This document shows, piece by piece, positions 42,896-62,890 of a stretch of 64,000 nucleotides of DNA. The notes under the pieces were generated by a model that saw only the letters and a list, made by a program, of their open reading frames with translations, was not told the origin of the DNA and ran no database searches. The position numbers and the translations under genes are program-made. The stretch lies in contig OZ241894.1 in NCBI GenBank assembly GCA_965203575.1, positions 3,818,841 to 3,882,840 of the forward strand, given 5' to 3'. Positions within the stretch are counted from its first letter, which is position 1. Each line of letters opens with the position of its first letter. Source of the stretch: Candidatus Aldehydirespirator sp. (GTDB lineage Bacteria; Actinomycetota; Acidimicrobiia; Acidimicrobiales; Aldehydirespiratoraceae).

Positions 42896-43378
42896 CTACG
42901 GGGCGGGACCCTCGGTCCACAGGCGGAGGGCCACCACCGCGGCGGTGCCGGCGACGAGTCCCGGCGCCCATCTCACCTTGGCGTCGCGGCCGTGGCGGGC
43001 CAGCGCCACCGCGGCCGCCGGCCATGCGGCCAGCGCTCCCGCTGTGAGGGCCCACAGTGCCCAGGCGGGGCCCCACCAGCCTGCCAGCAGGCTGTTGACC
43101 ACTATGAGGCGCACGTCGCCGAAGCCCATCCACTGCGGCCGCAGCCGCCAGACGACCTCCAGCGACACCGCGACCGCGGCGGCGGTGGCGGCGGCCCACC
43201 CCAGACGGCCCCAGCCTGCCCCGGTTCCGGCGGCCGCGCCGAGCAGCGCGGCGACCGCCGCCCCGGCCGGCCACACCGCCCGGCGGGGGATCACGGCGCG
43301 GCGCAGGTCGGTGACAGAGACGTAGGCGCCCATCGCGGCCCACACCGCTACCGCGGCCCAGACCAGCCCCGTACTCAC
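42896..43378 (-). CDS. A24-family prepilin peptidase (TadV/CpaA-like)
   Basis: Polytopic, 160 aa. The first catalytic Asp is in VTDLRRAVIP and the second in MGFGDVRL. GTG 43378 is preceded by GAGGAGGAA. It lies 45 nt downstream of the giant ORF. Confidence 0.75.
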   Translation of the reverse strand: MSTGLVWAAVAVWAAMGAYVSVTDLRRAVIPRRAVWPAGAAVAALLGAAAGTGAGWGRLGWAAATAAAVAVSLEVVWRLRPQWMGFGDVRLIVVNSLLAGWWGPAWALWALTAGALAAWPAAAVALARHGRDAKVRWAPGLVAGTAAVVALRLWTEGPAP

Positions 43379-43423
43379 GTCTGTTTCCTCCTCTGCGTTC
43401 AACCGGTCGTCGCGAGCCTGCGG

Positions 43424-46400
43424 TCAGTCGTTGTCGGTGATCGTGATCTTGACCAGGACCTCGCCGTCGTTGTCGGTGTCGCCGTGCAGGGTGGCGTGGC
43501 TGGGGCGGCTGAGGCGCACGTAGAACACCTCGTTGCCCTCGCGCGCGGAGTCGGAGCAGATCCCTATCCGGATTCGCTGGGATCTGGTGCCCCGCCAGTT
43601 GTAGTTGTCGGCGGGCGGGTAGGTGAGGGTGCCCGAGCCCGATACGTAGTCGCGGCCGCGGGTGCAGCTCGTGCCGCCGGTGGCCGCGCCGGCGCCGGCG
43701 CCGTCCTCGGTGGCCCAGTCCACCACCACCGTCCGCTCGCTGACGGGTCCGCTGAGGCTCGCCTCCAGCGTCAGGGTGTGCTCGACCTCGGCGACGGTCA
43801 GGTTCTCGACCCCGATCCGGGGTGGGCTCTCGTCCTCGGTGACCGTCAGGGTGGCCGACCCGTCACCGACCACGGCATGGTCGGTCGGCACGACACAAGT
43901 GCTCGGATCATCAGACACACTGCGACATTCCCGACGGGAGTTCAGGATCAGCACGACCTCGGCGGTCTCGGCGCCCTCGTAGCTACCGTCGTCGACGGTG
44001 ACGATCTCGCAGCGGAACAGCGTCGTCCCAGCCGGAATCCAGTTGCTGCACCTTTCAAAGAAGTCGGAGAACAGGTTGTGTCCAGCGGTCCAGATCCTAC
44101 TGAAGCCGTATAGGAGCGTCTCGGAGTTGTATCTGAGACCGAACGGCAGGTCGACTTCGAGGGCGCGGTCGAGGCGCACCTCGATGTGTCCGCCGATAGG
44201 GCTGTGGGATCTGGTGGAGTCTGTCTCCTCGTCCACTACGGCGTCGTGCACGCTGATGGTCGCCTTCTCGCCGATGATGGTGCCCTCGCCGGAGCCGCCG
44301 ACGATCGAGGCGTCGCCGCTCACCACCCGGACCAGCTCCAGCCGCAGCGTCTCGTCCACCTCGATGACCTCGTCGTCGATGGTCTGCACGTCGACGGTCT
44401 CCGAGGCGTCGCGGGCGGCGAAAGTCAGCGTGCCCCGGGAGGAGGTGTAGTCGTCGGGGGCGACCGCGGTGCCGTCGACGGTTCGGTACTGCACGGTCAC
44501 CTCCGACTGCGGCGCCGGGTCGAGCTTCACCTCGAAGGCGAGCCGGCCGCCCTCGCGCACCCCCTTGGCGTCGGAGACGCTGAGCTCGGGGGTGCCGATG
44601 GCCGGGCCGTCGCGGATGGTGCCGGTCGGCGCCCGGGTCGGGGCTGTGGCGTTGGTCGCGGTCCCGAACGACAGGATGATCGTCTCGTCGCCCTCGCCGG
44701 CGTCGGCGTCGCGGGCGGTGGGCACCGAGATGGTCGCCGACAGGGACCGGGGGTCGATCACCAGGCTCCGCGACGCCGCGGTGTAGTCCGCTCCGGCGGT
44801 GGCGGTGCCGTCGACGGTGCTGTAGGGCAGCGTCACCTGCCGCAGGCTGGGGTTGTCCAGCGTCACCGCGAACTCCAGCGGCTCGCCCTCGGCGGCGTAG
44901 GCGCCGGCCACCGACAGGCTCACCGGCGGGGGGTTCTCGTCGTCGTAGACGGTGACCGAGGTCACCCGGTCGGCCGCGGCGACCCGTGCGTTGGCCTCGT
45001 TCACCAGCCGCAGCCCGAACTGCTCGGTGCTCTCCGCGGCGCCGTCGTTGACGGTGGCCACCGTTACGGTCTTGGAGGTCTCGCTGGGCTGGAACGTCAG
45101 CGTTCCCTCGGTGTGGGTGTAGTCGCTGCCTGCCGAAGCGGTGCCGGGCTCGGTGCGGTAGCCCACCGTCACCACCCGGCTGCTCTCCGCGGAGAGGGTC
45201 ACGGTGAAGGTCACGCTGTCGCCCTCGAACACCCCGTCGGGCTCGGGCGCCGACAACTCCGGCAGCGGGGTGTCGTCGTCGAGGATCGTGCCCTGCGCGG
45301 TGGGGTCGGCCATCCTGAGCCCGCTCACGGCCTGCAGCCGCAGCAGGAACGTCTCGTCGGGCTCCGTCAGCTCGTCGTCCACGAGGGGCACCGGGATCAG
45401 GGCCCGGCCCTCGCCGGGGTCGATGGAGAGCGTGTCCCCGACGTGGGTGTAGTCGAGCCCGCGGGTGGCGGCCCGCCGGCCCGCTGAGGGCGTGGCCGCG
45501 GTCACGTAGCGCACCGTCGCCTCCTGCTTGGGCGGCGGGTCCAGGTTCATCACGAAGACCATCTCGCCGGCGTCCTCGGCCGCCTCCACCGCGGCGACGT
45601 TGGCCACCGTGACCTCCGAGTCGTCGTCGTCGATGATCGTTCCGGTCAGCCACAGTCTGGCGTCGTACCAGGCCTCGCTCAACTGGATCGTCCCGTGATG
45701 TCCGCCTCCTCCGCGGCAGAGGTACTCACTTGTGCGGCACCACCACACCTCCACGATGACGGTCTCGTTCTCCTCGATCTCGGCGTCCTCGAATGTATCG
45801 ACAGCGAATCCGGTCGGGTCCACGGTATGCCAGGGTTCGAACCAACTGCTGCCAGAGGGGGCGACCTGGAAGTCCCGTCTCACGAGAGCCGTGCCCCCCG
45901 CGATCACTCTGGTCTTGTAGCGCAGGCCCTGGCAGAGCGGCCGGTCGATCTCGATCCCGAACCAGATGGGGTTGCCCTCCTCCGCGGCGTGCCACTGGGA
46001 GATCCGGTGGTCGTTGGGGAAGCCGGTGGCGGCCTTCCACTGCGGAGGGCCGTCGACGGCGGGGTCGATGCACCGGTCGTTGTCGACGATGGTGACCTGC
46101 GCGTCGGTGTCGCCGCCCAGCCTGAGCCCGCCCAGGGGATCGCTGAGCCGCACCAGGAACGTCTCGTCGTCCTCCTCGTCGTCGTCGTCGACGATGGGCA
46201 CCGAGATCGTGGCCCGGTCGGCGCCGGCGACGATGGTCAGCCGTTGCGCGGTGTGGGTGTAGTCGGCGCCGGCGGCAGCGGCGCCGTCCCCGGACTGGGC
46301 GAGCGTGGTGTAGGCCACGCTGACGGCCTCGGTGGCCGGGGCGGCGAGTTCCACGGTGAGGACGGCCGATCCGTCGCCCTCGCTCACCCGCACGTCGTTG

Positions 46401-49400
46401 AAGGCCACCACCTCCGGGTCGTCGTCGTCGACCACGGTGACGGTGAAGTCCCAGTGCCGCGAGCCCCAGTGCGACGGGAGGTCGCCGACCCAGACAGCCC
46501 GTACCCGCAGCGTCTCGTCGCGTTCGTGGCGGTCGTCGTCGTTGACGGCCAGACGGCCGGTGATCGAGGCGGGCGCCGCCGCGGCGAAGGTCTCGAGCCG
46601 GTCGGCCGCGGCCACGTCGGCGGTGGCGCCGTCGGCGAAGGTGTAGCCCGTGCCGACGTCGGTGCTCTCGGGGGCGACGGTGGCGGTGACGCCGGAGAAC
46701 TCCAGCCGCCAGGTCGCGGCGGTGGTGGTGCAGCCGGCGACGAGCGCGAACGACGGCGTCCCCGCGTCCTCGGCCACCCTCAGCGGAGTGAACGACACCT
46801 CGGGCCGGCCGTGGGTCGAGTCGCCCGGGTCGACGCAGCCGCTGCCGATCGTGCCCGTCCCGACCCGGTTGCGCAGCAGGGCGTTGGACGACGGGTTCAC
46901 GAACCGCAGCTGGAAGTGCTCGTCACCCTCGTCGCGGCTGTCGGTGAAGGTGGCCACCGTCACGGTCTTGGACGTCACGCCGGCCGCGAAGTCCAGCCGG
47001 TCCGGCGACGCGGCCAGCACCCGGCGGTAGTCGGCGCCGGGGTCGGTCCTGGAGTCGCCGCCGGTGGCGGTGAGATCCTGGGTGTGGTACCGGACGCTGA
47101 CCGGCTCGCCGCTGGCCGTCGGGCTGCCGCCGGCGTTCACCAGGCTCACCGTGAACACCAGGTCCTCGCCCTCGTCGACCGGTCCGGCGTCGGACACCTG
47201 CAGGAACACCTCGGAGTCGTTGTCGGTGATGGTGCCCGTCGCCGACACGGCGGACGCGCTGCGGTAGCGCGCCGGCGCTCCCGCCCCCCAGCCGGCCTCG
47301 AAGCTGAAGGTCTCGTCGCCCTCGCCGATGTCGTCGTCGATGAGGGCGACCTCCACCGACACGCTCTGCCGGCCCGCGGCCAGGGTCGTCTCGCCGCTCG
47401 CGGCGGTGTAGTCGCTGCCCGACTCCGCGGTGCCGTCGGCGGTGCGGTAGCTGACGGGCAGGCTGGCGCCCTCGCACACCGGCTGGTCGATCTCGACGGT
47501 GAAGCTCATCGTCGCCTCGTCCTCCCGCGCCGTCCGGTCGAGCACGGTGATCGCCGGCGCCGGAGCGTTGTCGTCGCCGGGGTCGACGCAGGCGGCGTCG
47601 TCGTTCAGGATCGTGCCCGCCACGTAGCGCTCCGCGAAGGTGAGACTCACCGACGGGTTGTTGCGCTCGGTCACCGTGGCGGCCGACACGAGGTACAGCA
47701 GCAGCGTCTCGTCTTCCTCGGGGCCGGTGTCGCCGCACAGTTGCACCGTGGCCGTCGCCCACCGGTGCCCCTTGGGGATGTTCACCGACGCCCTCGTGGC
47801 CGGGATGACGAAGTCGGCGTCGCCGGAGCAGGACCGTCCCCCGGTCGCCCCGTTCGCGGGGCCGACGGGCCTGTAGATCACGGTCACCTCGCGGCTGTTG
47901 GCATAGGTCAGCCTCACCGGGAACCTCAGGACCCCGCTGGGAACCGTGACGGTGCCGTCGCCCTCGGCAACGGAGGCTCTGTCCACTCTCACCTTCGACG
48001 TGTCGTCGTCGACGATAGTGACCACCGTCTCCACCGGGTCGGCGCTGTTCCAGTTCGCGGGGTTGCCCGATCCGAAGAAGTCCCAGGAGAGCCTGAAGGT
48101 CTCGTCGGGCTCGTCGACATTGTCCTCGATGAGCGAGAAGTAGTGAGTCCAGACAGAATCGAACGCGGGCTGATTGTGTACAGCCTCCATTGAATAGAAG
48201 TCTTCACCTTGGACGGCGGTGATAGGGCTTGCCCGGATTCGGAGGCCGACCGTCTCGCACGGCCGGGGATCCATTCTTACGATCGCTACCACATCCCCGC
48301 CCTCCTCGACGGAACGGTCGGTCGCCGCGACTAAGCGGGGCGGGGAATGGTCGTCGGAGACCGGGAGGCACGGGGCGCGGATCACGCCCAGCGCGCTGGA
48401 GTCGCCGAGCCGGACGTTGGCGTCGACGTCGGGGGCGACGGGGACCGACAGCCTCAGCAGCAGCCGCTCGTCGCCCTCGGTCTCGTCGTCGGTGAGGGTG
48501 GGCACGGCCACGGTCTGCTCCAGCGGATCGCCGGGGTTGAAGGTCAATCGGCGGGATACCGCGGTGTAGTCGGCGCTCTCTCCCTCGGGGACGTCGTCGT
48601 GGGGCACCGCGGCCAGGTTGGGGGTGCCGCTGAAGGTCCTCGCGTCGACGGTCACCACCTTGGCGCTGGCCGCCGACAGGCGCACCGTGAAGGCCAGGTC
48701 CTCGCCCTCGCCGGCGGAGGCGCCGACCCCGTCGGGGCACGGCTCCAGCTTCAGGTCCTCGTCGGGGCAGTCGACGACCTCCACTGTGGGCTCGTCGTCG
48801 TTGTCGGCGATCTGGGCCTGGGCGAGGCTGGCGCCGACGGTGGCGTTCTGCACGCTGTCGGCGTCGAGCCGCACGGTGAACGTCTCTTCGTCCTCCTCGT
48901 CGAGGCTGTCGTCGCAGATCACCACGTCGAAGGTCTCGGTGGCCGGGTCGGCGTCGGCGGGGTCGAACTCGATCCAGGCGCCGGCGGCGGCCTGGTAGTC
49001 GGGCGCCGGGTCGGCCCCGCAGTCGCTGCCGCCGGTCGCGGTGTCGCTCTCCTGCCCGAAGGCGACCTGCGCTCTCACCACCCGGCCGCTGGGGTTGTCG
49101 AGCCTGGCGGTGAAGGTGGCCGTGGCGGACTCGGCCACCGCCGCGGCGGGGGCCTCGAGGCTCAGGGTCGGCAGGGGGTCGTCGTCGGTGATCGTGCCCA
49201 CCGCGCAGTCGTCGTCGTCGTTGGCCGACTCGTCGGCCGGGGTGTTCGGATCGTCGGGCACCTCCGCCGGGCACGGCGACGACGCGCCCGACGACGCGTC
49301 GATGCCGTCGAAGCCGCTGAGCTTGAGGGTGAGCATCTCGTCGTCGTCCTCGTCGAGGGTGTCCTCGCAGGTCTCCACGGTGACCGTCACGGTGTCGGTG

Positions 49401-52400
49401 CCGGGGCCGAAGCTCGCGGGAGTGCTCGGCAGAGACACGAAGTCCGGCGGCGAGTCCCCGCTGCAGGCGGTCCCGCCCGTCGCAGCCCCCTCGGCCGCGG
49501 TCTGGTAGTCGACGCTGACCGTGCGGCCCGCCTCAGGGGTCAGGTTGAGGGTGAACTGCAGGTCCTCGCCCTCGCCCGCGGCGGCGTCGGACACCGTGAG
49601 CTGCGGCTCGTCGTCGTCGTCGACGATGACCGCGATGGCGGTGCCGCCGCCGGCGAGGCTGCCGTAGTCCGGCGCTCCCAGCCGCAGCAGGAAGGTCTCG
49701 TCGTGCTCGTAGAGACCGTCGTCGGAGACCGCCACGGACACGGTGGTGCTGTCCGAGCCGGCCGGGATCGTCAGCGAGCTGTTGGGCGCCGCCGAGGTGA
49801 AGTCGGCGCCGGCGGTGGCGGCCTCCTCGCCCTCTGAGGGGCGCTCGGCGGTCCAGTAGGGCGCGGTCACCGCCTGGCTGGCCTCCAGCGGGGTGGCGGT
49901 GCCGGCGATGAACAGCCCCACCGTGAACACCGCCTGGCCGTCGTCCTCGCCGACGCACACCTCGTAGTCCGGGAAGCTGTCGTCGGTGCAGGTGTCCAGC
50001 AGGCGCAGCTCGTGCTCGTCGTCGTCGACGATCCTGCCGTCGGCCCGGTAGTCGCTGGGGTGGCGGCGGTAGGTGGGATCCGGTCCCGACGGAGTGTCCA
50101 GCCACACCTCGAACAGCTCGTCGCGCTCGCCCACCGGGGCGTGCGGGGCGCGGCCGTCGTCGACGGACTGCACATCGAGTGTCGCGCTGGTGCTGCCCTC
50201 GTCGATCGTCACGGTGCCGCTTGCGACGTTGACGTAGTCGGCGCCGGTGTCGGTGGCAAGGTCCGCGCCGGTGGCGGTGCCGTAGGGCAGGTCCGCCGAG
50301 GACTTCTGCCCTGTTCGCCACCCCACCACCACGTCGCGGCCGCTCTCCTGGCCGAGCCGCACCGTGAACCTCAACGTCCCGCCCTCGACGGCAGACGACC
50401 CCACCCCGTCGGGGCAGGGATCCAGCCCCAATGCAGCGTCAGGACAGACGACGATCTCCGCTGCGGGCGGATCATCGTCGTCGGCCACGGTGCCCGTGCC
50501 CGCCGTGTCGGCGTCGACGGTCGCCTCCGGGTCGGCGGGATCCCCCGGCACCAGCCTCAGGACCACATCGAAGGTCTCCTCCGCGTCCTCGTCGAGACTG
50601 TCGTCGAAGGTGGGCACCACGAAGGACGCCGTGCGGTGGCCGACCCCGAAGACGACCTCGCCGGTGAGCTGCGTCGCCGGAGGCGGCGGCGGCACCACGA
50701 GGTCGCCGTCGACGGTGGTGCCGTGCACCACGCTCCACTCCGCGGTGACGGGCCGCTGCGCGGCCACCGGCGATGTCCCGTCGGTCGCGCTGACCAGACT
50801 CACCTCGAACCTCAGCGGCGTGCCCTCGGTGCCGCGGGCGTCGCCGACTCGCAACAGCGGCGGGGCGTCGTCGTTGACGATCACGCCCACCGCGCACCTG
50901 TCGTCGGCGTAGTCAGACTCGTCGGCCGGGGTGTTCGGATCGTTGGGCACCTCCGCCGGGCACGGACCGGTCTCGCCGCCGGGATCCGCGAAGCCCGCGT
51001 TGGAGGCCCCCAGCCGCAGCACCACCGTCTCGTCCTCCTCGTCCAGGTCGTCGTCGATGATGGTGACCCCTGCCTGCTTGGGCCCGGTCTCGCCGGGTCC
51101 GAACCGCACCTCGCCCTGCGGCGACGGCGTGCACGCCACCCCGGTGTAGTCGTCGGGCTCGGCGGCCGTGCCGTCCTCGGTGCAGTACTCGACGGTAACC
51201 CCCGTCGCCCTGCCGCTCGGGGCGCTCAGTGCCACGTCGAAGCTCAGCACGGCACTGTCGGCCTCGGTCACGGAGGCGTCCGAGACGAGCACGTCCGGCG
51301 GATCATCGTCGTCGATGATGGTGCCCCTGCCGGGGCTCGTGTCGATCCAGGCGCTGTCGCTCGGGTTGCACAACTCCACCAGGAACGTCTCGTCGTCCTC
51401 GTCGAGACCATCGTCGTCAACCTGCACGGTGAGCGTCGTGCGGCCGGTGCCGTCCCTCGGGATGACCACCTCGGGCGAGCCGGCCGGGCAGGGGCCGGGC
51501 TCGCCGGTGTAGTCCGCCCCGGCTGTGGCGCGGCGGGCGGTCGGGTTGTCGTCGTCTCTGGTGAAGTAGCGCACGGTCACTTCGGGCGTCTTGGGTCCCA
51601 CGCGCGTCACCGTGAACACCAGCGACCCGGCCGGGTCGCCCGGGTTCGACCCGCACTCGGTGGGATCGGCGTTCTCACAGGCGCGGGCGTCGCCGACCGA
51701 CAGCCCCGGCTCGTCGTCGAGGATCGTGCCCACCGCACAGTCGTCGCGGTCGGTTCCAGCTTCGGCCTCGGCCGGGCAAGGGGTGCCTCGACCGACGGTG
51801 CCGGAAAACTGGGCACCGGAGGCTTGCAGGCGCAACTCGACCGTCTCGGGGCCCTCGCCGCAGCGGTCGTCGTCGATCGTCACCGTGACGTCCCGCGGCC
51901 CGGTCTCTCCCGGCCCGAAGGTCAACGTGTCCCCCGCTTTGACGTAGTCGCGGTCGGTGGTGTCTCGGCAGGTGTTGAGCAACGTGGCCGTGCCGTCGGC
52001 GGTCTCGTAGTCGACCGTCACCTCCACTCCGGCCGCGGCGGCCAGCCCCACCTGGAATGTCAGCTGGACGCCGTCGCCCTCGGTCACGGGCGCCGCGTCG
52101 GACACGGTGACGGTCGGCGGATCGTCGTCGTCGCGAATGGTGCCGATGGCGCTGCGCCGGGCCTGGTCCAGGTTCAGCAGGGCAGGATCGGGCGGCTCGC
52201 CCAGCACCAGTTCCAGGGTCTCGTCGGCCTCGAAGAGGTCGTCCCGGACGACCTCCACCTCGATGGTCGCCCCGGTATTACCGACTTGGATCGTCACCGT
52301 GGACGGCGCCGGCAGCGTGTAGTCGGAGACTTCAGTCGCAGGGTTAGGGCCGGTGCCGGTGATGGTGTAGGGCAGCACCACCTCGGCGGTGGCCGGCGCG

Positions 52401-53053
52401 TCAAGGGTCAACGTGAAGATGAGCTTCGGCGGGTCGCCGGGGTCTGCCAGGTCGCCCTCGACCACCACAGCGCCGCTCACGCCTGCCTTGGGCGCGCCCT
52501 GCAGGACGGCCACCTCCGACGCCTGCCCGCGGAACTCGACGGTGGGGAACACCCCCCGCAGCGGCGCCACCGCCCCGTCGGTCTCGCACACGAAGCTCAC
52601 CCCCAGCACCCCGATCCCGCTCACCTCGGTGTTGGCCGCCGTCACCCCGCTGGAAGGGTCCGGGACCAGGTCGTCGCGGACCAGCCACTCCTCCTCCAGG
52701 ATCCCGGTCTCGCCCGGCACCGGCCGCGGGCCGCCGATGCACAGGAAGTCCAGCCCGGGCCGGGCCGACAGCACGTCGGTCACCAGGTCCTCGCATTCCG
52801 CCTCCCGGTCCTCCTCGCAGGTCAGCGCGGCCGCGGTGGCCGCCTCCTCCGCGGCCAGGTCGGTCATCAGCGCGGCCCGGCCGCCCCGGCCCGCCCACAG
52901 CACGAACAGCGCCAGCAGCATCAGGACCGGCACCAGCAGCACCACCTCCAACGAGGTCGAGCCCGCCTCCCCCCGCCGCGTCCGGCGGGCCTGCAAGGCC
53001 TCCCCGCCCACCGGCGCCGACCGCGTCACGCCAGCCCGGCCCCGGCGCGTCAT
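43424..53053 (-). CDS. Giant (~3,200 aa) protein: TadE-like pseudopilin N-terminus fused to ~23 Calx-beta-like modules
   Basis: An uninterrupted ORF runs 43424-53311. The class-III-like signal RRGEAG/STSLEVVLLVPVLMLLALFVLW has Glu at +5. About 23 modules end in D-rich motifs (e.g. IIDDDLDEEDETVVLRL, IVDDDDEEDDETFLVRL) with ..Y.T.DGTA..G.DY.. cores. ATG 53053 is chosen; ATG 53137 and the ORF-track start codon at 53311 are alternatives. Confidence 0.8.
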   Translation of the reverse strand: MTRRGRAGVTRSAPVGGEALQARRTRRGEAGSTSLEVVLLVPVLMLLALFVLWAGRGGRAALMTDLAAEEAATAAALTCEEDREAECEDLVTDVLSARPGLDFLCIGGPRPVPGETGILEEEWLVRDDLVPDPSSGVTAANTEVSGIGVLGVSFVCETDGAVAPLRGVFPTVEFRGQASEVAVLQGAPKAGVSGAVVVEGDLADPGDPPKLIFTLTLDAPATAEVVLPYTITGTGPNPATEVSDYTLPAPSTVTIQVGNTGATIEVEVVRDDLFEADETLELVLGEPPDPALLNLDQARRSAIGTIRDDDDPPTVTVSDAAPVTEGDGVQLTFQVGLAAAAGVEVTVDYETADGTATLLNTCRDTTDRDYVKAGDTLTFGPGETGPRDVTVTIDDDRCGEGPETVELRLQASGAQFSGTVGRGTPCPAEAEAGTDRDDCAVGTILDDEPGLSVGDARACENADPTECGSNPGDPAGSLVFTVTRVGPKTPEVTVRYFTRDDDNPTARRATAGADYTGEPGPCPAGSPEVVIPRDGTGRTTLTVQVDDDGLDEDDETFLVELCNPSDSAWIDTSPGRGTIIDDDDPPDVLVSDASVTEADSAVLSFDVALSAPSGRATGVTVEYCTEDGTAAEPDDYTGVACTPSPQGEVRFGPGETGPKQAGVTIIDDDLDEEDETVVLRLGASNAGFADPGGETGPCPAEVPNDPNTPADESDYADDRCAVGVIVNDDAPPLLRVGDARGTEGTPLRFEVSLVSATDGTSPVAAQRPVTAEWSVVHGTTVDGDLVVPPPPPATQLTGEVVFGVGHRTASFVVPTFDDSLDEDAEETFDVVLRLVPGDPADPEATVDADTAGTGTVADDDDPPAAEIVVCPDAALGLDPCPDGVGSSAVEGGTLRFTVRLGQESGRDVVVGWRTGQKSSADLPYGTATGADLATDTGADYVNVASGTVTIDEGSTSATLDVQSVDDGRAPHAPVGERDELFEVWLDTPSGPDPTYRRHPSDYRADGRIVDDDEHELRLLDTCTDDSFPDYEVCVGEDDGQAVFTVGLFIAGTATPLEASQAVTAPYWTAERPSEGEEAATAGADFTSAAPNSSLTIPAGSDSTTVSVAVSDDGLYEHDETFLLRLGAPDYGSLAGGGTAIAVIVDDDDEPQLTVSDAAAGEGEDLQFTLNLTPEAGRTVSVDYQTAAEGAATGGTACSGDSPPDFVSLPSTPASFGPGTDTVTVTVETCEDTLDEDDDEMLTLKLSGFDGIDASSGASSPCPAEVPDDPNTPADESANDDDDCAVGTITDDDPLPTLSLEAPAAAVAESATATFTARLDNPSGRVVRAQVAFGQESDTATGGSDCGADPAPDYQAAAGAWIEFDPADADPATETFDVVICDDSLDEEDEETFTVRLDADSVQNATVGASLAQAQIADNDDEPTVEVVDCPDEDLKLEPCPDGVGASAGEGEDLAFTVRLSAASAKVVTVDARTFSGTPNLAAVPHDDVPEGESADYTAVSRRLTFNPGDPLEQTVAVPTLTDDETEGDERLLLRLSVPVAPDVDANVRLGDSSALGVIRAPCLPVSDDHSPPRLVAATDRSVEEGGDVVAIVRMDPRPCETVGLRIRASPITAVQGEDFYSMEAVHNQPAFDSVWTHYFSLIEDNVDEPDETFRLSWDFFGSGNPANWNSADPVETVVTIVDDDTSKVRVDRASVAEGDGTVTVPSGVLRFPVRLTYANSREVTVIYRPVGPANGATGGRSCSGDADFVIPATRASVNIPKGHRWATATVQLCGDTGPEEDETLLLYLVSAATVTERNNPSVSLTFAERYVAGTILNDDAACVDPGDDNAPAPAITVLDRTAREDEATMSFTVEIDQPVCEGASLPVSYRTADGTAESGSDYTAASGETTLAAGRQSVSVEVALIDDDIGEGDETFSFEAGWGAGAPARYRSASAVSATGTITDNDSEVFLQVSDAGPVDEGEDLVFTVSLVNAGGSPTASGEPVSVRYHTQDLTATGGDSRTDPGADYRRVLAASPDRLDFAAGVTSKTVTVATFTDSRDEGDEHFQLRFVNPSSNALLRNRVGTGTIGSGCVDPGDSTHGRPEVSFTPLRVAEDAGTPSFALVAGCTTTAATWRLEFSGVTATVAPESTDVGTGYTFADGATADVAAADRLETFAAAAPASITGRLAVNDDDRHERDETLRVRAVWVGDLPSHWGSRHWDFTVTVVDDDDPEVVAFNDVRVSEGDGSAVLTVELAAPATEAVSVAYTTLAQSGDGAAAAGADYTHTAQRLTIVAGADRATISVPIVDDDDEEDDETFLVRLSDPLGGLRLGGDTDAQVTIVDNDRCIDPAVDGPPQWKAATGFPNDHRISQWHAAEEGNPIWFGIEIDRPLCQGLRYKTRVIAGGTALVRRDFQVAPSGSSWFEPWHTVDPTGFAVDTFEDAEIEENETVIVEVWWCRTSEYLCRGGGGHHGTIQLSEAWYDARLWLTGTIIDDDDSEVTVANVAAVEAAEDAGEMVFVMNLDPPPKQEATVRYVTAATPSAGRRAATRGLDYTHVGDTLSIDPGEGRALIPVPLVDDELTEPDETFLLRLQAVSGLRMADPTAQGTILDDDTPLPELSAPEPDGVFEGDSVTFTVTLSAESSRVVTVGYRTEPGTASAGSDYTHTEGTLTFQPSETSKTVTVATVNDGAAESTEQFGLRLVNEANARVAAADRVTSVTVYDDENPPPVSLSVAGAYAAEGEPLEFAVTLDNPSLRQVTLPYSTVDGTATAGADYTAASRSLVIDPRSLSATISVPTARDADAGEGDETIILSFGTATNATAPTRAPTGTIRDGPAIGTPELSVSDAKGVREGGRLAFEVKLDPAPQSEVTVQYRTVDGTAVAPDDYTSSRGTLTFAARDASETVDVQTIDDEVIEVDETLRLELVRVVSGDASIVGGSGEGTIIGEKATISVHDAVVDEETDSTRSHSPIGGHIEVRLDRALEVDLPFGLRYNSETLLYGFSRIWTAGHNLFSDFFERCSNWIPAGTTLFRCEIVTVDDGSYEGAETAEVVLILNSRRECRSVSDDPSTCVVPTDHAVVGDGSATLTVTEDESPPRIGVENLTVAEVEHTLTLEASLSGPVSERTVVVDWATEDGAGAGAATGGTSCTRGRDYVSGSGTLTYPPADNYNWRGTRSQRIRIGICSDSAREGNEVFYVRLSRPSHATLHGDTDNDGEVLVKITITDND

Positions 53054-53220
53054 GCCGCCCCGCCCACCGGCGCCGACAGCGTCACGCCGGCCCCGACCCC
53101 ACGGCCACACGCCGTATCGGCCGGTGAGGCGCCGCATCGCGCCCCCACGGCCCTGCCCCGGGCCCGGCCGACCGGGACCACCGGGTGCGCCGCCGCATCG
53201 CGCCCCCACGGCCCTGCCCC
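53002..53220. repeat. Short direct repeats in the 5' leader region of the giant ORF
   Basis: CCCCGCCCACCGGCGCCGAC[C/A]GCGTCACGCC occurs at 53002 and 53058. GCCGCATCGCGCCCCCACGGCCCTGCCCC occurs at 53131 and 53192. Confidence 0.7.
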
Positions 53221-53324
53221 GCCGCCGGCGGCCCGCCAGTCCCCGCGTCAACGGGCCGGACCGGCCCGCGACCGCCGCACCGGGGGGCGTGCTCACCGGT
53301 CCGGTCCCCAACCTGGCCGCCCGC

Positions 53325-54155
53325 TCAGCCCGACAGCGCCGTCCGGCGCTGCGACGAGTCCGACAACTGCCTTGAGTTGGCGCTGGGGTTCTGTAGCACG
53401 ACCGGCCGGCCCTGGTCGTCGAGCACGTCCAGACGGTCGGTGCAGCGTTCCATGAGTGTTGAACTGTCGACCGCCCGGCTGCGGCGCCCTATCGACTCGG
53501 CCCCCAGCCGCCTCCCGTCGGGCCACACCTGCGCCGCGGCCCAGCCCGCTGCGTCCCAGTCGGCGACCAGGGCCACGTGCACCGCGTCCTTCACGTCGAT
53601 CTTCGGGGAGATCTGGCAGGGCACGTTCGACGACTGTTCTTCGAGCGAGTCGCTGTAGAAGCCCCTCAGCGACCCCACGTCCACGCCCAGATTGCCCAGG
53701 TCGCGCACCACCGACTCGAACAGGGCGTCGCAGGCCTTCCTCCAATTCTTCAGCTTGGACCGGTAGGCGTCGATCCTGTCCTGCTCGGCCTTGCGGAGAT
53801 CGTCCAGGCGACTCCATTCAGCCGGGTCGACGTTGCGGTCCACGGCGTCCCGGTCGGTTTGGAACCGGTCCCGTTCGCTCTCGTAGCCGTCCAGCGTCTC
53901 CTGCTGCTTCGATTCGCGGTAGTCGCACTCCGGGGGGAACGCCGGGATCGGCCCGGTGGGCTGCTGGTGGGTGTAGCGCCAGGCGACCGCCATGGTGGCC
54001 ATGTCGTCGGCCGCCTCGCGCATGGAGGACTCGGCCGCCAGACGCTGGGGGCCGGCCATGGCCACCACCGCCGCGAAGGCCGAGATCGGCACCATCAGCA
54101 CCACCCACAGGCTCACCGCGCCGCCCGACTCGCCACGCCCGACCGGCCGCCGCAT
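53325..54155 (-). CDS. TadE/TadG-like pseudopilin-type protein
   Basis: The N-terminus MRRPVGRGESGGAVSLWVVLMVPISAFAAVVAMAG fits the Tad 'TadE/G-like' hydrophobic N-terminal pattern. The remainder is unrecognised. The alternative start at 54356 adds 67 aa. Confidence 0.55.
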   Translation of the reverse strand: MRRPVGRGESGGAVSLWVVLMVPISAFAAVVAMAGPQRLAAESSMREAADDMATMAVAWRYTHQQPTGPIPAFPPECDYRESKQQETLDGYESERDRFQTDRDAVDRNVDPAEWSRLDDLRKAEQDRIDAYRSKLKNWRKACDALFESVVRDLGNLGVDVGSLRGFYSDSLEEQSSNVPCQISPKIDVKDAVHVALVADWDAAGWAAAQVWPDGRRLGAESIGRRSRAVDSSTLMERCTDRLDVLDDQGRPVVLQNPSANSRQLSDSSQRRTALSG

Positions 54156-54377
54156 CCACCGCACGGCCGCGCCCGCACGGCCGCGCCCGCACGCTTCGGC
54201 GGACCGCCCCCAACGGCTCACCACAGGTCCCACCATCGGCATCGCCGTGCCCCGTCGGACACCGTCCGGCGGCTCCGACGGGGCCTCAGAGGCACCGGCG
54301 CGTCGTTGGGCCTCCCCGGCGACCCTTCCCCGTCCGAACCGTGTCATCGCGGACACCCTCCGTCAGCGGGCCGGCCG

Positions 54378-55745
54378 CTAACGGCTCTCCGGGGCCGTCC
54401 AGTTCCGCTCCTCGAGGTTCTGCTCGGTCACCGCGGTGGGGTCCATGGCCACGTGGCCGGTGTCGTAGGCGCCCGCGAGCAGGAAGTCGCCGCAGGCGTC
54501 GGCCGCGGCCGCGGCCTGGTTGGCCAGGCCCGGCACCATGGCCGCCACCACCACGCCCTCGTAGACGTAGTTGACCAGCGAGTCGCTCATGTGGAAGCCC
54601 GCGGTGGACACCTCGCCGTATAGGGCCTGCGCCGCTATGAACCTCGACGCCTGCTCCAGGCTGGGGTCGGGGTGGAAGATGATGTCCACGTCGGGGTGGG
54701 CCTCGATCCACTCGCCGGCCGCCTCGTAGGCCGCCTCGGGGTCGGCGCCGAGCGACGCCGCGGTGTCGGCGCCGTTGACGAACTCCAGGTCGGGCAGCTC
54801 CTCTCCGATGCCGTCGATGAAGCCCTCCATGAGCACGCGGGACCGCTCGTCGGCGGCGTCGGCGGCCAGCACCGCCCCCTTGCGCAGCAGGATCCGGCCG
54901 TCCAGGGCCCAGCGGCCCACCAGCCTGCCGGTGTGGACGCCCGCGCCGCGGTCGTCGAGGCCGTAGAAGGCGAAGCGCTTGGAGCCGGGGCTGTCGGCGC
55001 CCACCGTGAACACCGGCACGCCCGAGTTGGCGGCCCGGTCGATCACCCTGGCCAGCTCGCCGCCGGCCGCGGCCTCCACCACCAGGCAGTCGACCTCGCC
55101 CGCCACCACCAGCTCGTCGATCTCCGCGGCCTGCGCGTCGGGGTCGTCGCCCCATGGGCCAACCACCCGGGCCTCGACGGCGCCGCCGTAGCGGGCCGCG
55201 ACCTCCTCGGCGCCCCGGGCCCAGCCCTCTCCCATGGCCGGGCCCGAGCCTCCGTCGCTGGTCGCCCCCACCGACAGGACCAGGCTCAACGTCTGGTCGA
55301 GGGTTAGCAGCTTGTGGGCCGTCCGGTCGGCCAGCAGGAACGAGCCCCAGGGCAGTTCCGCCCGGTATGGCGGGCTCTGGGGCCGCGGCGGCACCGTGGT
55401 GGCGGGCGGCCCCGGGTCGGCGGGCGCCGTGGTCGCGGGAGGCTCCGGGTCCGGCGGCGCCTCGGTCGTGGCCGGCGGCTCCGGGTCGGTGTCGGGCGGC
55501 TCCGGGTCGGCGGGCGCCTCGGTGGGGTCGGGCTGCTCCGGGTCGGCGGGCGCCGCCTGGTCCGGCGCGGCCGTCGACGTGGGCGCGGCGACAGGCTGGG
55601 GCCCGTCATCGCCGCCGTCCCCGCCGCAGGCCGATGCCAGCAGGGCCCCGAGGGCGACAAGGCAGCCCGCACGCCGGATGCCGAGCGCTGCCCGCGTGCG
55701 CAGGTCCGGGCCGCGCCCGCCGGGTGGTGTGTCACGTTGCTTCAT
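54378..55745 (-). CDS. Lipoprotein with a type I periplasmic-binding-protein (sugar-binding-like) domain and a P/E/T-rich linker
   Basis: Lipobox LLASAC. The linker is PDPTEAPADPEPPDTDPEPPATTEAPPDPEPPATT. The PBP-like core includes EIDELVVAGEVDCLVVEAAAGGELARVIDRAANSGVPVFTVGAD. Confidence 0.55.
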   Translation of the reverse strand: MKQRDTPPGGRGPDLRTRAALGIRRAGCLVALGALLASACGGDGGDDGPQPVAAPTSTAAPDQAAPADPEQPDPTEAPADPEPPDTDPEPPATTEAPPDPEPPATTAPADPGPPATTVPPRPQSPPYRAELPWGSFLLADRTAHKLLTLDQTLSLVLSVGATSDGGSGPAMGEGWARGAEEVAARYGGAVEARVVGPWGDDPDAQAAEIDELVVAGEVDCLVVEAAAGGELARVIDRAANSGVPVFTVGADSPGSKRFAFYGLDDRGAGVHTGRLVGRWALDGRILLRKGAVLAADAADERSRVLMEGFIDGIGEELPDLEFVNGADTAASLGADPEAAYEAAGEWIEAHPDVDIIFHPDPSLEQASRFIAAQALYGEVSTAGFHMSDSLVNYVYEGVVVAAMVPGLANQAAAAADACGDFLLAGAYDTGHVAMDPTAVTEQNLEERNWTAPESR

Positions 55746-55934
55746 GGATCCGCCTTCCTATGGACTTGGTTTGGTTTGATTGCCTGCCGTCCGGGGCCAG
55801 CCGCCCGCAGACGGACGAAGGTCCGCGCCCCCTCGAACCTGCCGAACGGCCCGAACCGCCGCAGGAGGCCGGGCCGGGCCCGACGCACGGCGCCGCCGAC
55901 TCGGGGACAGGCCGCCCGGCGGCTGTTGGATAGG

Positions 55935-56693
55935 GTGAGCGGCATCCGCCGCCCGACCTGCCTCCTGCCGCGCCGACGGGAACAGCCCCAGTCCGCCGCG
56001 CATCGCCTCACCCGCCGCGGACGATCCAGGCCGCAGGCAGCCCGACCCCCCACCGGCGCCGCCGCGAGGATCGCGGCCGCGTCGAGGCGCTTCGGGGCCG
56101 CGCGGCGCGACGAGCGGGGCGAGACGCTGGCGCTGCTGGTGCTGTGGCCGATGCTGCTGGTGGCCGTCCTGTTGCTGCTGGTGCACGCCTTCATCGTCGC
56201 CAACGCCCAGTCCGAGGCCGAGGTGGCCGCGTCGGCGGGCCTGAGGGCGGCGTGGCGCTCAGCAGCCAACGAGGACTTCCTGAGCGTCCGCCAATCCGAC
56301 GGCACGTACACGGCGGACAAGTACACGGACGACCCGAGTACGCAGGGGGTAGTAGAACACGCGGCCACGCACCCGGCGGTGCTGGAGATGGCCTCGGCCG
56401 CGCAGGACGCCGCAGCCCGGGCGGCGGCCACCAAGACCGGCTGGCGGTGGTGGACGCCGGGCGCGACGGTGGTGCACAGCGACTGGTGCGAGCCCGCGGG
56501 GGCCCGGCCGGGCCAGGGCCAGTCGGGCTGGGTGCGGGTGGTGGTGTCGGGAGAGGTGTTCGGGCCGCTGGCCGCGCTGTGGCCCGACCGGCTCGACCGC
56601 GTGTACGCGGCCGCGACCGGCCCCGCGGTGCTGCTCTCGCCCCAGCAGGGCCAGCAGGCTCCAGTGGTCCCCGCCGACCTGCCCGAGTGCTGA
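55935..56693 (+). CDS. TadE-like protein on the opposite strand
   Basis: RDERGETLALLVLWPMLLVAVLLLLVHAFIVANAQSEAEVAASAGLRAA resembles the TadE N-terminal domain. The start is uncertain: GTG 55935 is the nearest in-frame start to the motif and gives a long Arg-rich leader. Confidence 0.45.
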   Translation: MSGIRRPTCLLPRRREQPQSAAHRLTRRGRSRPQAARPPTGAAARIAAASRRFGAARRDERGETLALLVLWPMLLVAVLLLLVHAFIVANAQSEAEVAASAGLRAAWRSAANEDFLSVRQSDGTYTADKYTDDPSTQGVVEHAATHPAVLEMASAAQDAAARAAATKTGWRWWTPGATVVHSDWCEPAGARPGQGQSGWVRVVVSGEVFGPLAALWPDRLDRVYAAATGPAVLLSPQQGQQAPVVPADLPEC

Positions 56694-56709
56694 CCCGCCC
56701 CGCCCGCCT

Positions 56710-56899: not shown

Positions 56900-57304
56900 C
56901 TAACCCCCAAGGCCCGATCTCGGCGTGACCACGCACCTCGCCGGGACGTCATCGGCGAGGTCGCCCGGCGTATTGTCGCCTGTGGGCGGGGACCAGACCG
57001 CTCTCGAAACGACATCGCCGAAGTCGTCCTGGATGCCGGGGTCGCAGCGACTAGAGAAGCCCGAGTCCACGTACAGGTTCCCGTCTCTGACCGCCGCGTC
57101 GAAGGCGGCCTGGGCGTCGGAGGCCACGAAGGCGGCGGCTATGTCGGCGTCTATCAGCCGGACCGCGGGGTCGGCGGGCACCTCGGCGGTGTCGTCGATC
57201 ACCCGCTGCACGGCCAGCACCGAGACCGCGGCCAGGCCCGCGACGGCGCCCACGATCAGCAGCCACTCCAGGGTGATCAGCCCGGCGTCGGCGGCGGCGC
57301 TCAC
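56900..57304 (-). CDS. Flp-type (class III signal) pilin-like protein, unusually long (134 aa)
   Basis: The GTG start gives MSAAADAG/LITLEWLLIVGAVAGLAAVSVLAV. This is a G/xxxxE[WY] processing motif plus a hydrophobic helix, as in Flp/DUF4244-type pilins. A ~90-aa C-terminal extension follows. Confidence 0.65.
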   Translation of the reverse strand: MSAAADAGLITLEWLLIVGAVAGLAAVSVLAVQRVIDDTAEVPADPAVRLIDADIAAAFVASDAQAAFDAAVRDGNLYVDSGFSSRCDPGIQDDFGDVVSRAVWSPPTGDNTPGDLADDVPARCVVTPRSGLGG

Positions 57305-57343
57305 GGTGCGGGCCTCACGGCAGGCTGGTGATGCCGCCGCCGG
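57260..57343. repeat. 84-bp direct repeat, copy 1 (tadC 3' end / pilin 5' end junction)
   Basis: Matches 58135-58218 with 2 mismatches at an offset of exactly 875 nt. Confidence 0.9.
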
Positions 57344-57431
57344 CGGGGGGAGATCTCGGCCGTGGGTTGTCGAGCACTGTCTCGGCGCGGTTCAATGGTT
57401 CTGTGGCCGGACACCTCCGAGAGGGACGCGC

Positions 57432-58090: not shown

Positions 58091-58134
58091 CACGGCACAG
58101 AACGGCCGGGCTGTCGCGGTCGTCCGGCGGCCGG

Positions 58135-58218
58135 CAGCCACTCCGGGGTGATGAGCCCGGCGTCGGCGGCGGCGCTCACGGTGCGGGCCTCACGGCAGGC
58201 TGGTGATGCCGCCGCCGG
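58135..58218. repeat. 84-bp direct repeat, copy 2 (contains the true tadC stop and a 15-codon remnant of the pilin 5' end)
   Basis: See 57260-57343. The minus strand reads GTG AGC GCC GCC GCC GAC GCC GGG CTC ATC ACC CCG GAG TGG CTG, i.e. MSAAADAGLITPEWL. Confidence 0.9.
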
Positions 58219-59011
58219 TGAGCGACGTGAACGGCGGGTAGACGAGGATGCCGGCCAGGGCGAGGGCCACGCCGGTGGCGGGCACCACGATGATCTGGGC
58301 CCGCCGGGCCGCCTTCTCGCGCTCGCGGCTGGTGCTGTCGCGCCACAGCGTGTCGGCGGCCACCAGGATGGCCTCGGCCATGCGGGTGCCCCGCTCGGCG
58401 GCCAGGCCCAGCGCGGAGACCGCCGGGGCCAGGCTGTGGATGCCGTAGCGGCTGACTACGTCGCCCAGGCCCTCCCAGACGGGGCGGCGGTCCTGCTGCG
58501 CGGCGAGCAGGAACCGGTGCAGCAGCCGCCAGCTGCTGCGCTCCCCCGCCCGGGCCGCGGCCAGCATCGCCACCGACGGGTCCACCCCGGCCGCCACCTG
58601 CTGGGCCACCAGCGCGATCCACACCCTTATGACCTGGTCGATCTCGGTGCGGGCCTTCTTGGCGGTGTCGCGCACGCCCAGCATGGGAAGCAGCCAGCCG
58701 GCCGCTCCGGCGGCGACGGCCAGCAGCGCCGCCCCCACCGGGCCCCGTCCCGTCACCACGCTGACGACCGCGCCGACGGCCAGGCCGGCCACGAGGCCGC
58801 CGAAGCGCTGCAGCGAGTAGGACTCCGGGGTGATGCCGGCCAGGCGCAGGTTCTGCTCCTCGCCCTCCTTGATGGTGGGCAGCAGGTCGCGCAGCGTCTC
58901 GCCGGGCGTCTGCGAGCTGCGGCTGCGCGTCGGCGGCCCCACCACGCCCACCGCGATCAGTACGACGCCGGCGAAGAACACCAGCGCGGCCCCCAGCACC
59001 AGCGGGCTCAT
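58190..59011 (-). CDS. tadC: Type II secretion system F-domain protein, TadC-like
   Basis: 273 aa. N-terminal TM segment, central cytoplasmic T2SSF-like domain, and C-terminal TM segments (AQIIVVPATGVALALAGILVYPPF). Confidence 0.75.
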   Translation of the reverse strand: MSPLVLGAALVFFAGVVLIAVGVVGPPTRSRSSQTPGETLRDLLPTIKEGEEQNLRLAGITPESYSLQRFGGLVAGLAVGAVVSVVTGRGPVGAALLAVAAGAAGWLLPMLGVRDTAKKARTEIDQVIRVWIALVAQQVAAGVDPSVAMLAAARAGERSSWRLLHRFLLAAQQDRRPVWEGLGDVVSRYGIHSLAPAVSALGLAAERGTRMAEAILVAADTLWRDSTSREREKAARRAQIIVVPATGVALALAGILVYPPFTSLTGGGITSLP

Positions 59012-59030
59012 GCCGGGTCCTGCCAGCGGC

Positions 59031-59161
59031 GCGGCGGCCGTCCGGGCGCCGGCGGGCTCGCCGGGGACCCCCGTGCGGGGCGCGGCGGCCGTCCGGGCGC
59101 CGGCGGGCTCGCCGGGGACCCCCGTGCGGGGCGGGGCGGCCGTCCGGGCGCCGGCGGGCTC
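59031..59161. repeat. 51-bp tandem repeat, ~2.6 copies, filling the tadB-tadC intergenic space
   Basis: The unit GCGGCGGCCGTCCGGGCGCCGGCGGGCTCGCCGGGGACCCCCGTGCGGGGC starts at 59031, 59082 and 59133 (1 mismatch). The last copy runs into the tadB stop codon. Confidence 0.85.
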
Positions 59162-62774: not shown

Positions 62775-62775
62775 T

Positions 62776-62890
62776 GCGCCTCTCCCACCCCGCGGGCGGC
62801 CGTCACTGCAGCCTGCCCAATGCCCCCGGCACGGTCGACACGGTCGGCACAAAGCGCCTCCCCCACCCCGCGGGCGGCCGTCACTGCGGC
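62776..62890. repeat. 37-bp direct repeat x2, 78-bp period, at the cpaB / tadZ-like junction
   Basis: GCGCCTC[T/C]CCCACCCCGCGGGCGGCCGTCACTGC[A/G]GC occurs at 62776-62812 and 62854-62890. The second copy holds the cpaB stop codon. Confidence 0.8.

Follow-up and report, generated by a model that had tools for sequence, protein, structure and literature searches.

Classical TadE and TadF, which are minor pilins of the Tad system, are small proteins of about 120–200 amino acids (aa) that carry no extra domain, and to our knowledge Tad-class pilins normally lack the IPR012902 (N-methylation) class III motif. The prepilin peptidase TadV has been reported to process Flp, TadE and TadF (Tomich 2006, as cited in PMC12075869). 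The specific functions of simple type IV filaments have recently been explained by minor pilins that carry grafted modules. Such modular type IV pilins include PilB (a pilin with a vWA domain) and PilC (a pilin with a lectin) of S. sanguinis, and they are thought to be displayed at the filament tip (Raynaud et al. 2021, PMC8179133). The survey in that paper, in whose text Tad is nowhere mentioned, is based on the IPR012902 N-methylation motif of type IVa-like pilins; its most extreme modular pilin has 860 aa with 12 repeats (PMC8179133). The first functional evidence for module-grafted minor pilins in Tad systems dates from 2025, when TadE/F/G-like minor pilins with modular C-terminal domains were described to form interchangeable Tad tip complexes in Myxococcus, with four Tips (Herrou et al. 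2025, PMC12075869). Here we describe a gene for a giant protein of 3,209 aa from Candidatus Aldehydirespirator sp. (contig OZ241894.1), located on the minus strand of a 64,000-nucleotide (nt) window, the window being the whole stretch of DNA that was analysed. The giant protein is probably a modular Tad (type IVc) minor pilin, in which a TadE-like module of ~200 aa precedes 23 Calx-beta domains, and which would be processed by a prepilin peptidase and displayed at the pilus tip.

The giant protein shares with TadE/TadF (PF07811; A. actinomycetemcomitans) a match to the TadE profile, the Gly-x4-Glu shape of the processing site, a tad operon with a TadV-type A24 peptidase next to the gene, and a predicted α1 helix with a small β-sheet. 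It differs in having ~3,000 further residues, in having Val instead of Phe/Tyr after the Glu, and in belonging to a monoderm host without a secretin gene. With the TadG/KilN Tips (PMC12075869) it has in common a grafted C-terminal module, two other minor-pilin-like genes adjoining, the existence of variable versions (four Tips in Myxococcus, swapped cassettes and tandem arrays here) and a proposed specificity-giving role at the tip, but it lacks PF13400 and vWA, and its graft of 23 β-sandwiches is several times longer than TadG/KilN. As in the modular type IV pilins, which are also found in monoderms, a small pilin module is combined with a functional domain for display, probably at the tip; the TadE-like module (residues 32 to ~200) is joined directly to the Calx-beta array. 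The scale, however, is different from that of every described pilin: against a maximum of 860 aa, the giant protein has 3,209 aa and its relatives reach 5,321 aa. A further likeness is to the LapA/MpIBP RTX adhesins, which similarly form chains of β-sandwiches of several thousand residues with acidic linkers of a Ca2+-binding type, and of which a LapA domain is marginally matched. Unlike these, the giant protein would be anchored N-terminally via a pilin module, is encoded in the Tad operon of a monoderm and has no RTX match.

A single continuous gene encodes the giant protein

The main features of the gene and its immediate neighbour are as follows.

43424..53053, minus strand: giant gene, TadE-like module followed by 23 Calx-beta domains, 3,209 aa counted from the ATG at 53053
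52961..53053, minus strand: Arg/Gly-rich leader, residues 1–31, ending at the predicted prepilin-peptidase site G31/S32 (from the translation)
52838..52963, minus strand: match to TadE (PF07811), residues 31–72, hydrophobic α1 segment with Glu36 at +5 (Pfam)
52454..52960, minus strand: predicted mature pilin-like N-module, residues 32 to ~200 (AlphaFold2 and relatives)
43427..52447, minus strand: 23 Calx-beta domains, residues 203–3209 (self-trained hidden Markov model, HMM)
42896..43402, minus strand: A24 prepilin peptidase, TadV/CpaA-type, 168 aa (Peptidase_A24, 32.6 bits against a cutoff of 26.5)

The reading frame is open from stop to stop over 43424..53488 of the minus strand, with the stop codon at 43424–43426. 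Its earliest start, a TTG at 53311, would give a protein of 3,295 aa, and the first ATG, at 53053, gives one of 3,209 aa, corresponding to a length of 9.63–9.89 kb. An earlier note on this DNA had reported a single uninterrupted open reading frame (ORF) of 9.6–9.9 kb, with which these values agree. Other in-frame start candidates are located at 52996, 53011 and 53029 (GTG/TTG) and at 53137, on up to the TTG at 53311; all residue numbers in this text are counted from the ATG at 53053, which is a provisional start. The GC fractions of the gene at the three codon positions are 0.69, 0.54 and 0.93, respectively. A third-position value (GC3) of 0.93 matches the pattern of real genes in this window of ~70% GC.

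An artefact or pseudogene was considered as an explanation of the unusual length, i.e., a mis-assembled or chimeric ORF in which two separate genes, a small one for TadE and one for Calx-beta, are joined, or a chance frame in GC-rich DNA. Many spurious long ORFs arise in high-GC DNA, and in the closest metagenomic relative (locus L001) the orthologous giant is called as three pieces, of 219, 88 and 2,852 aa. The split is caused by two compensating frameshifts ~315 nt apart (L001 10650–10975), which throw the first Calx-beta domain out of frame. The pieces are nevertheless colinear with the window protein, and given the low coverage of the contig (23x according to its name) sequencing indels are a plausible cause, the alternative being a genuine disruption. 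In the window gene, the high GC3 is sustained over the full 9.6 kb. Tandem DNA repeats in the gene are limited to two (24-bp unit ×2, at 48977 and 53022), and since the domains are ~30% identical and DNA repeats are essentially absent, a collapse of repeats during assembly is unlikely. In addition, intact orthologues that are colinear from end to end are present in independent assemblies (P0098, L005, L003, L011, L012 and dozens more). An assembly chimera or repeat collapse was rejected on these observations, and because of the intact orthologues an assembly artefact or chance ORF can be excluded for practical purposes; we consider this explanation extremely improbable.

The N-terminal module resembles TadE

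Residues 26–53 of the giant protein read RRGEAG/STSLEVVLLVPVLMLLALFVLW, in which G31 is followed by S-T-S-L-E36. Cleavage after G31 would place a Glu at position +5, following the Tad prepilin rule. The isolated N-domain matches the TadE profile with 27.3 bits (E = 4e-6, cutoff 22.9), covering positions 1–42 of the 43 profile positions, and TadE is also matched (E < 0.001) by 53 of 96 small homologues. Copies bearing the hydrophobic motif were listed, 50 from relatives and that of the window protein, and nearly all of these 51 contain G-[ST]-x-[SAP]-L-E-[LVM], the deviants being three copies with G-x5-E and one with a Tyr before the Glu. The few residues preceding the Gly are conserved at the protein level as well, even where gene callers began at an internal Met, which supports the translation of the Arg/Gly-rich leader. 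The TadE-type N-terminus with Glu at +5, which the earlier note had read by eye from the string RRGEAG/, is thus borne out. A Tat signal peptide was rejected for this region: a pair of Arg residues is present, but the sequence that follows does not fit the twin-arginine consensus when inspected by eye, and the site reads G/xxxxE. At E ≤ 0.01 the Pfam matches to the giant protein include neither N_methyl nor PF13400 (Tad) or vWA, so that the protein is not of the TadG type.

AlphaFold2 models of the N-terminal region, based on an alignment of 95 sequences (two models with predicted local distance difference test scores, pLDDT, of 86 and 89), contain a continuous α1 helix of 46 residues (33–78). 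It is followed by a second helix, a three-stranded antiparallel β-sheet (residues 119–125, 144–158 and 172–185) and a separate β-sandwich (~189–308). A topology of α-helix plus β-sheet corresponds to the description given for TadE/F/G-like proteins (PMC12075869). Residues Cys79, Cys105 and Cys156 are near-invariant. The globular N-module of ~170 aa is retained at 40–80% identity among the relatives, while the stalk diverges to 29%. As judged by HMM, motif and context, the N-module is a member of a TadE-like family.

The Calx-beta array extends to the C-terminus

The giant protein matches the Pfam profile of Calx-beta (PF03160) with E = 6e-165, and 15 of its stretches pass. An HMM trained on the giant protein itself resolves exactly 23 domains, which follow each other with almost no spacers and reach the last residue; the earlier count by eye had been ~23. 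The pairwise identity among the 23 domains is 15–51%, with a mean of 30%. Most of the domains contain an acidic DDD..E.DE.F motif, and the alignment reveals in addition an acidic G.I.DDD linker between domains; Ca2+ binding is predicted. In a Foldseek comparison the first Calx-beta domain is similar to CBD1 of NCX1/CALX (PDB entries 2dpk and 3ead; E = 1e-8, TM 0.76–0.82), and a profile match to these structures is found too. The LapA-domain profile (PF20579) matches the first β-sandwich marginally, with 28 bits against a cutoff of 27.

The C-terminus, ...GEVLVKITITDND, contains no LPXTG motif, no hydrophobic tail and no C-terminal anchor, and a sortase-anchored surface protein was rejected on the first two of these grounds. 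An RTX adhesin of a type I secretion system (LapA-like) was likewise rejected, as no RTX family occurs among the Pfam matches to the giant protein and its C-terminus is a Calx-beta domain; nor was a retention module seen.

A Cys-bracketed acidic insert recurs in three of the Calx-beta domains (residues ~420–445, 700–730 and 1265–1292). Two of these inserts read CPAEVP(N/D)DPNTPADES...C-AVG, and the third reads CPAEAEAGTDRDDC-AVG. The insert may form a disulfide-closed loop.

Relatives in Acidimicrobiia form a TadE-(Calx-beta)n family

A word-indexed search with the N-domain (195 aa) returned only small proteins of 108–342 aa, many of them with a TadE match, a single Calx-beta match or both; those with a name were from Acidimicrobiaceae and Ca. 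Poriferisodalis. The suggestion from this search that the giant protein is unique or chimeric was overturned by an exhaustive phmmer search, which identified 138 relatives of the N-domain. When the phmmer matches, word-index matches and cluster members are pooled (209 relatives), 50 proteins are longer than 1,000 aa, 34 longer than 2,000 aa and 28 longer than 3,000 aa, the longest having 5,321 aa. In this pooled set up to 34 Calx-beta domains are present per protein, and some members contain fn3 arrays behind the Calx-beta domains. The TadE-like module is N-terminal in the giants seen. One entry, P0202, is a HYR-repeat protein with weak scattered matches and probably not a member of the family.

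Among the GTDB species representatives 46 loci were found, all in metagenome-assembled genomes (MAGs) of Acidimicrobiia, which are labelled as Ca. Poriferisodalis, Ca. Poriferisocius, Ca. Aldehydirespirator, or just as Acidimicrobiaceae, Acidimicrobiales or Acidimicrobiia. Approximately 30 of these loci have frames of more than 1,000 aa after the TadE module, and the synteny of the operon is conserved in ~35 of the 46. Many of the MAGs that bear the family are sponge-associated. Comparison of the orthologous tad loci, which had been proposed in order to see whether the fusion is conserved or represents two genes, shows that intact colinear fused orthologues exist, and that a protein of ~300 aa occupies the slot in other loci. 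P0098 has 3,196 aa and 23 domains and is 69.5% identical to the window protein from end to end, with the same order throughout; L005 is also colinear with the window giant, at 56.6% identity. L003 contains an intact version of 2,585 aa with the same N-terminus, and L011 a version of 3,507 aa with the peptidase 58 nt downstream. In L002, L004, L023, L026, L034, L035 and L045 the slot is taken by a small relative of ~190–340 aa, with the peptidase within 3–48 nt or overlapping. The small protein consists of the TadE module and one β-sandwich, which is assigned to Calx-beta by Pfam in some homologues; the slot proteins of L002 and L004 (328–342 aa) have no recorded Pfam match, and other small homologues there do have a Calx-beta match. 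Two contigs, OZ220743.1 (L007–L009) and NZ_OZ241965.1 (L015/L017/L019), contain three giants in tandem each, of which at least some are preceded by a binding-protein gene of their own. This suggests that the tandem giants are arrays of alternative tip subunits.

The TadE-(Calx-beta)n proteins, with n ranging from 0–1 to 34, form a family in related Acidimicrobiia that is conserved but unannotated. Just one of the ten giants that were looked up has a name, 'Calx-beta domain-containing protein' (WP_419847676.1, Ca. Poriferisocius). The connection between the two parts was missed by word-index searches and by gene callers, and many gene calls begin after the leader peptide. According to the earlier note, the architecture was not known to have been described. 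This holds in so far as there is no annotated family beyond the generic name, and full-text literature searches returned no paper combining TadE and Calx-beta (a literature search on Poriferisodalis returned no papers); the fusion is, however, not unique to the window but belongs to a whole family of Acidimicrobiia.

The gene is located in a monoderm-type Tad operon

Upstream of the giant gene the following features are present.

53325..54356, minus strand: second pseudopilin-like gene, up to 343 aa (motif ...GESGGAVSLWVVLMVP..., no HMM match)
54378..55745, minus strand: Peripla_BP_4 binding protein (90.3 bits)
55935..56693, plus strand: opposite-strand pseudopilin-like gene (motif ...DERGETLALLVLWPMLLV..., GC3 0.88, no HMM match, start uncertain)
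56900..57304, minus strand: Flp-like candidate major pilin, 134 aa (motif DAG/LITLEWLLIV, Glu at +5, then Trp)
58190..59011, minus strand: TadC-like platform protein (T2SSF, 20.7 bits, below the cutoff of 25.2; syntenic orthologues 60–94% identical)
59160..60176, minus strand: TadB-like platform protein (T2SSF, 28.4 bits against a cutoff of 25.2)
60055..61518, minus strand: TadA/CpaF-type secretion ATPase (T2SSE, 91 bits; TIGR03819, 198 bits; Walker A GALGAGKTT)
61515..62852, minus strand: TadZ-position protein with a repetitive C-terminal tail (no HMM match; conserved in synteny)
62881..63906, minus strand: SAF-domain protein, CpaB/RcpC-like, first gene of the operon (SAF, 37 bits; TIGR03177, 26 bits, below cutoff)

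Read from 63906 along the minus strand, the genes come in the order SAF/CpaB-like, TadZ-position, TadA, TadB, TadC, Flp-like, the plus-strand ORF, binding protein, 343-aa protein, giant and peptidase. The Tad operon is of the monoderm type, and the giant gene is the last of its pilin-type genes; the location of the giant gene inside a tad locus, as previously described, is confirmed by the T2SSE, T2SSF and SAF matches on the same strand. The operon contains no secretin gene, since the host is a monoderm actinobacterium. The A24 peptidase, which had been noted to follow directly at a distance of 45 nt, does so when counted from a GTG start at 43378; with the TTG at 43402 as start the gap to the stop codon of the giant gene is 21 nt. 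It has no methyltransferase domain, and the Asp residues within ...VTDLR... and ...GFGDVRL... are candidates for its catalytic residues. Beyond the peptidase the genes are unrelated and metabolic (a carboxyltransferase and a dehydrogenase).

The Flp-like protein matches DUF4244 below the cutoff (13.4 bits), and its L001 orthologue has a faint DUF4244 match as well. In ~35 loci the 343-aa gene is retained directly before the gene, giant or small, that fills the slot. At the position where the giant and the Flp-like protein have the Glu at +5, the 343-aa protein contains a Trp (...GGAVSLWVV...), which is conserved in its orthologues. NCBIfam searches gave nothing for the peptidase or for the neighbouring pseudopilin-like genes.

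Proposed mode of display

In the reading that we favour, the hydrophobic α1 helix would target the giant protein to the membrane, and the Calx-beta array would be exported and fold outside the cell. The adjacent A24 peptidase would remove the leader after G31. The mature N-module, probably together with the two neighbouring pseudopilin-like proteins, could then prime the assembly of the Flp-like pilin on TadA/TadB/TadC, and as a consequence would be carried at the tip of the pilus. A location at the tip is proposed because an appendage of 3,000 residues cannot pack into the body of the filament. From there the Calx-beta array would project as a stalk of ~80–100 nm, if ~4 nm is assumed per β-sandwich, and Ca2+ bound at the acidic motifs may stiffen it. 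Its role would be that of a variable adhesin that binds to the matrix or the cells of the host.

Several observations weigh against this reading. In a Pfam scan of the full 3,209-aa protein TadE scores 21.1 bits, which is under the cutoff of 22.9, and the NCBIfam model TIGR03816 ('Rv3654c family TadE-like protein') is matched weakly, with 16.9 bits against a threshold of 50.95. The residue at +6, after the Glu, is Val, Leu or Met, and not the Phe/Tyr of classical Flp/TadE/TadF sites. A Foldseek search of the PDB with the N-domain model gave nothing significant (best E 0.46, no pilin), so that the pilin fold is a reading of the predicted topology; the 320-residue model retrieved Calx-beta structures only, and so did a profile search of the PDB sequences. 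The start codon of the giant gene is uncertain and with it the length of the leader. No distinct binding domain caps the array, the C-terminus being that of a Calx-beta domain. The assignment of the two neighbouring genes as pseudopilins is tentative: neither has HMM support, and when the N-domain family of the giant is aligned by hhalign with the families of these two proteins and of the Flp-like protein, the alignment covers the N-terminal motif only (probability 2–8%). Finally, cleavage, pilus assembly and expression of the giant protein are predictions from the genes.

Some of these points would also fit a membrane-anchored giant adhesin. In it, the TadE-like N-terminus acts in the cytoplasmic membrane as a signal anchor that either stays uncleaved or is cleaved and does not polymerise, and the array spans the wall and juts out from the cell without any Tad filament. 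In that case co-regulation, or a base resembling a pseudopilus, would account for the position of the gene in the operon. The hydrophobic helix would serve as a signal anchor in any case, and with neither an anchor nor a secretion signal at the C-terminus the N-terminal attachment is the only visible one; the marginal TadE score of the full-length scan and the lack of a pilin match in the PDB point in the same direction, and a stalk of ~100 nm would clear a monoderm wall without the help of a pilus. On the other hand, a simple anchor needs neither the G-x4-E motif nor the residues preceding it, which almost all of the 51 listed copies possess, and the predicted α1 helix, with 46 continuous residues, is far longer than a membrane span. 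It would also leave the conservation of the ~170-aa module (40–80%, while the stalk falls to 29%) and the fixed slot of the gene before a prepilin peptidase to be accounted for. We regard such an anchored adhesin as possible but doubtful. Taken together, the sequence analyses support the architecture and the family assignment given in the earlier note; that the protein is 'pilus-presented', as it was called there, is what we infer as well.

A variable cassette within a conserved operon

The giant gene lies in a hypervariable cassette of operons that are nearly identical elsewhere. When the window is compared to L011 (Ca. Aldehydirespirator sp., OZ242033.1), the core tad genes, from the SAF-like gene through TadC, and the peptidase are 89–95% identical at the nt level (94.6% for the peptidase), with a value of 84% for the Flp-like gene. 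The ~13 kb in between (window 43424–56700, L011 6770–20660) show 64–80% nt identity or are unalignable. This region holds the plus-strand ORF, the binding protein, the 343-aa gene and the giant gene. The giants of the window and L011 are 29% identical at the aa level, and as the core genes are 89–95% identical, close relatives differ in their stalk allele while the rest of the operon is conserved. The pattern suggests allele swapping or diversifying selection. Together with the occurrence of small and giant versions in the same slot, such alleles, apparently swapped between operons that are otherwise 89–95% identical, amount to a natural experiment.

The binding protein contains, as seen by eye, a lipoprotein-like signal (...LLASAC) and a linker of ~100 aa rich in Pro, Thr and Glu. 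For 14 of 20 giant alleles, compared to 2 of 18 small alleles, its gene is present in the 3 kb upstream (Fisher p = 3e-4, a value without correction for phylogeny), and one of these two small-allele loci is the frameshifted giant of L001. This co-occurrence would suit a display or secretion device, i.e., a short pseudopilus with the giant protein, similar to the piston of type II secretion systems or the archaeal 'bindosome', which would push or organise the Calx-beta protein and the binding lipoprotein in the region of the wall, with no long adhesive pili being built. Three pseudopilin-like genes accompanying a single Flp-like gene would also be in line with such a device. A bindosome ATPase model weakly matches the ATPase of the operon, but this match is one among many generic ATPase matches and scores 62.9 bits against a cutoff of 1000. 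Furthermore, the signal of the binding protein is of the lipoprotein type and not class III, the Flp-like pilin gene is conserved in the operon, and the statistic takes no account of phylogeny. A device of this kind is very unlikely, in our view.

Significance and possible relation to the sponge host

A role of the giant protein as a modular minor pilin would push the idea of grafted pilins to an extreme, with 20–34 β-sandwiches and a size of 4–6 times that of the largest modular pilin surveyed (860 aa, PMC8179133). Tandem Calx-beta domains are also present in the sponge Aggregation Factors, with 3–15 domains in MAFp4 and 2–14 in the AqAFs, which are ~23–30% identical (Grice et al. 2017, PMC5400394). 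The Aggregation Factors are extracellular, mediate Ca2+-dependent adhesion and are encoded by highly polymorphic loci (PMC5400394). They differ from the giant protein in being eukaryotic and in having Wreath/VWA/VWD domains and a Sec signal peptide; the likeness lies in a shared type of domain, and a functional link is speculative. Calx-beta and fn3 domains are enriched in sponge-symbiotic members of the same two families, i.e., TK06 (now Poriferisodalaceae) and UBA11606 within Aldehydirespiratoraceae, in a study whose text never mentions pili and does not link these domains to any surface machinery (PMC11706023). Tethering to a Tad pilus would be a concrete and testable way to present Calx-beta/fn3 'eukaryotic-like proteins' to the sponge host.

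Because the Aggregation Factors are polymorphic Calx-beta arrays with Ca2+-dependent adhesion, a wider proposal can be formulated. In sponge-symbiotic Acidimicrobiia, Tad pili might serve as interchangeable masts for Calx-beta arrays, with or without fn3 and of up to 5,300 residues, which engage or mimic host adhesion and allorecognition and thereby decide which strains are retained and which are eaten. We consider this proposal unlikely. If true, host-engaging pilus masts would explain the reported enrichment of Calx-beta and fn3 in the symbionts, and the proteins would be by far the largest class of pilins known.

Additional features of the operon

The Trp of the 343-aa protein at the Glu+5 position is reminiscent of the tip-most minor pilins, such as GspK, which lack Glu5. 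The gene at 55935..56693 is unusual for a pilin cluster in being located on the plus strand amid the operon, and it is conserved and on the opposite strand in most of the related loci too. Its product begins with a hydrophobic segment similar to that of TadE. The true start of the TadB-like gene is probably near 60060.

Between the TadC-like and Flp-like genes an insertion of ~790 bp (57344–58135) is present, which is absent from L011. It is flanked by an 83-bp direct duplication of the start of the Flp-like gene (57261–57343 and 58136–58218, identical at 81 of 83 positions), and contains two plus-strand ORFs (~57399–57722 and 57719–58090), of which the second, encoding 123 aa, includes the motif DTGYSG; Pfam gave no match for either. 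The insertion looks like a small mobile cassette of two genes. Tandem repeats are found at three places in the operon: a 75-bp unit repeated 2.4 times (100% match) at 60064–60241, covering the TadA C-terminus and the start of TadB; a 51-bp unit repeated 2.6 times (98%) at 59028–59161, between TadB and TadC; and units of 72–90 bp at 61634–61934, in the tail of the TadZ-position protein.

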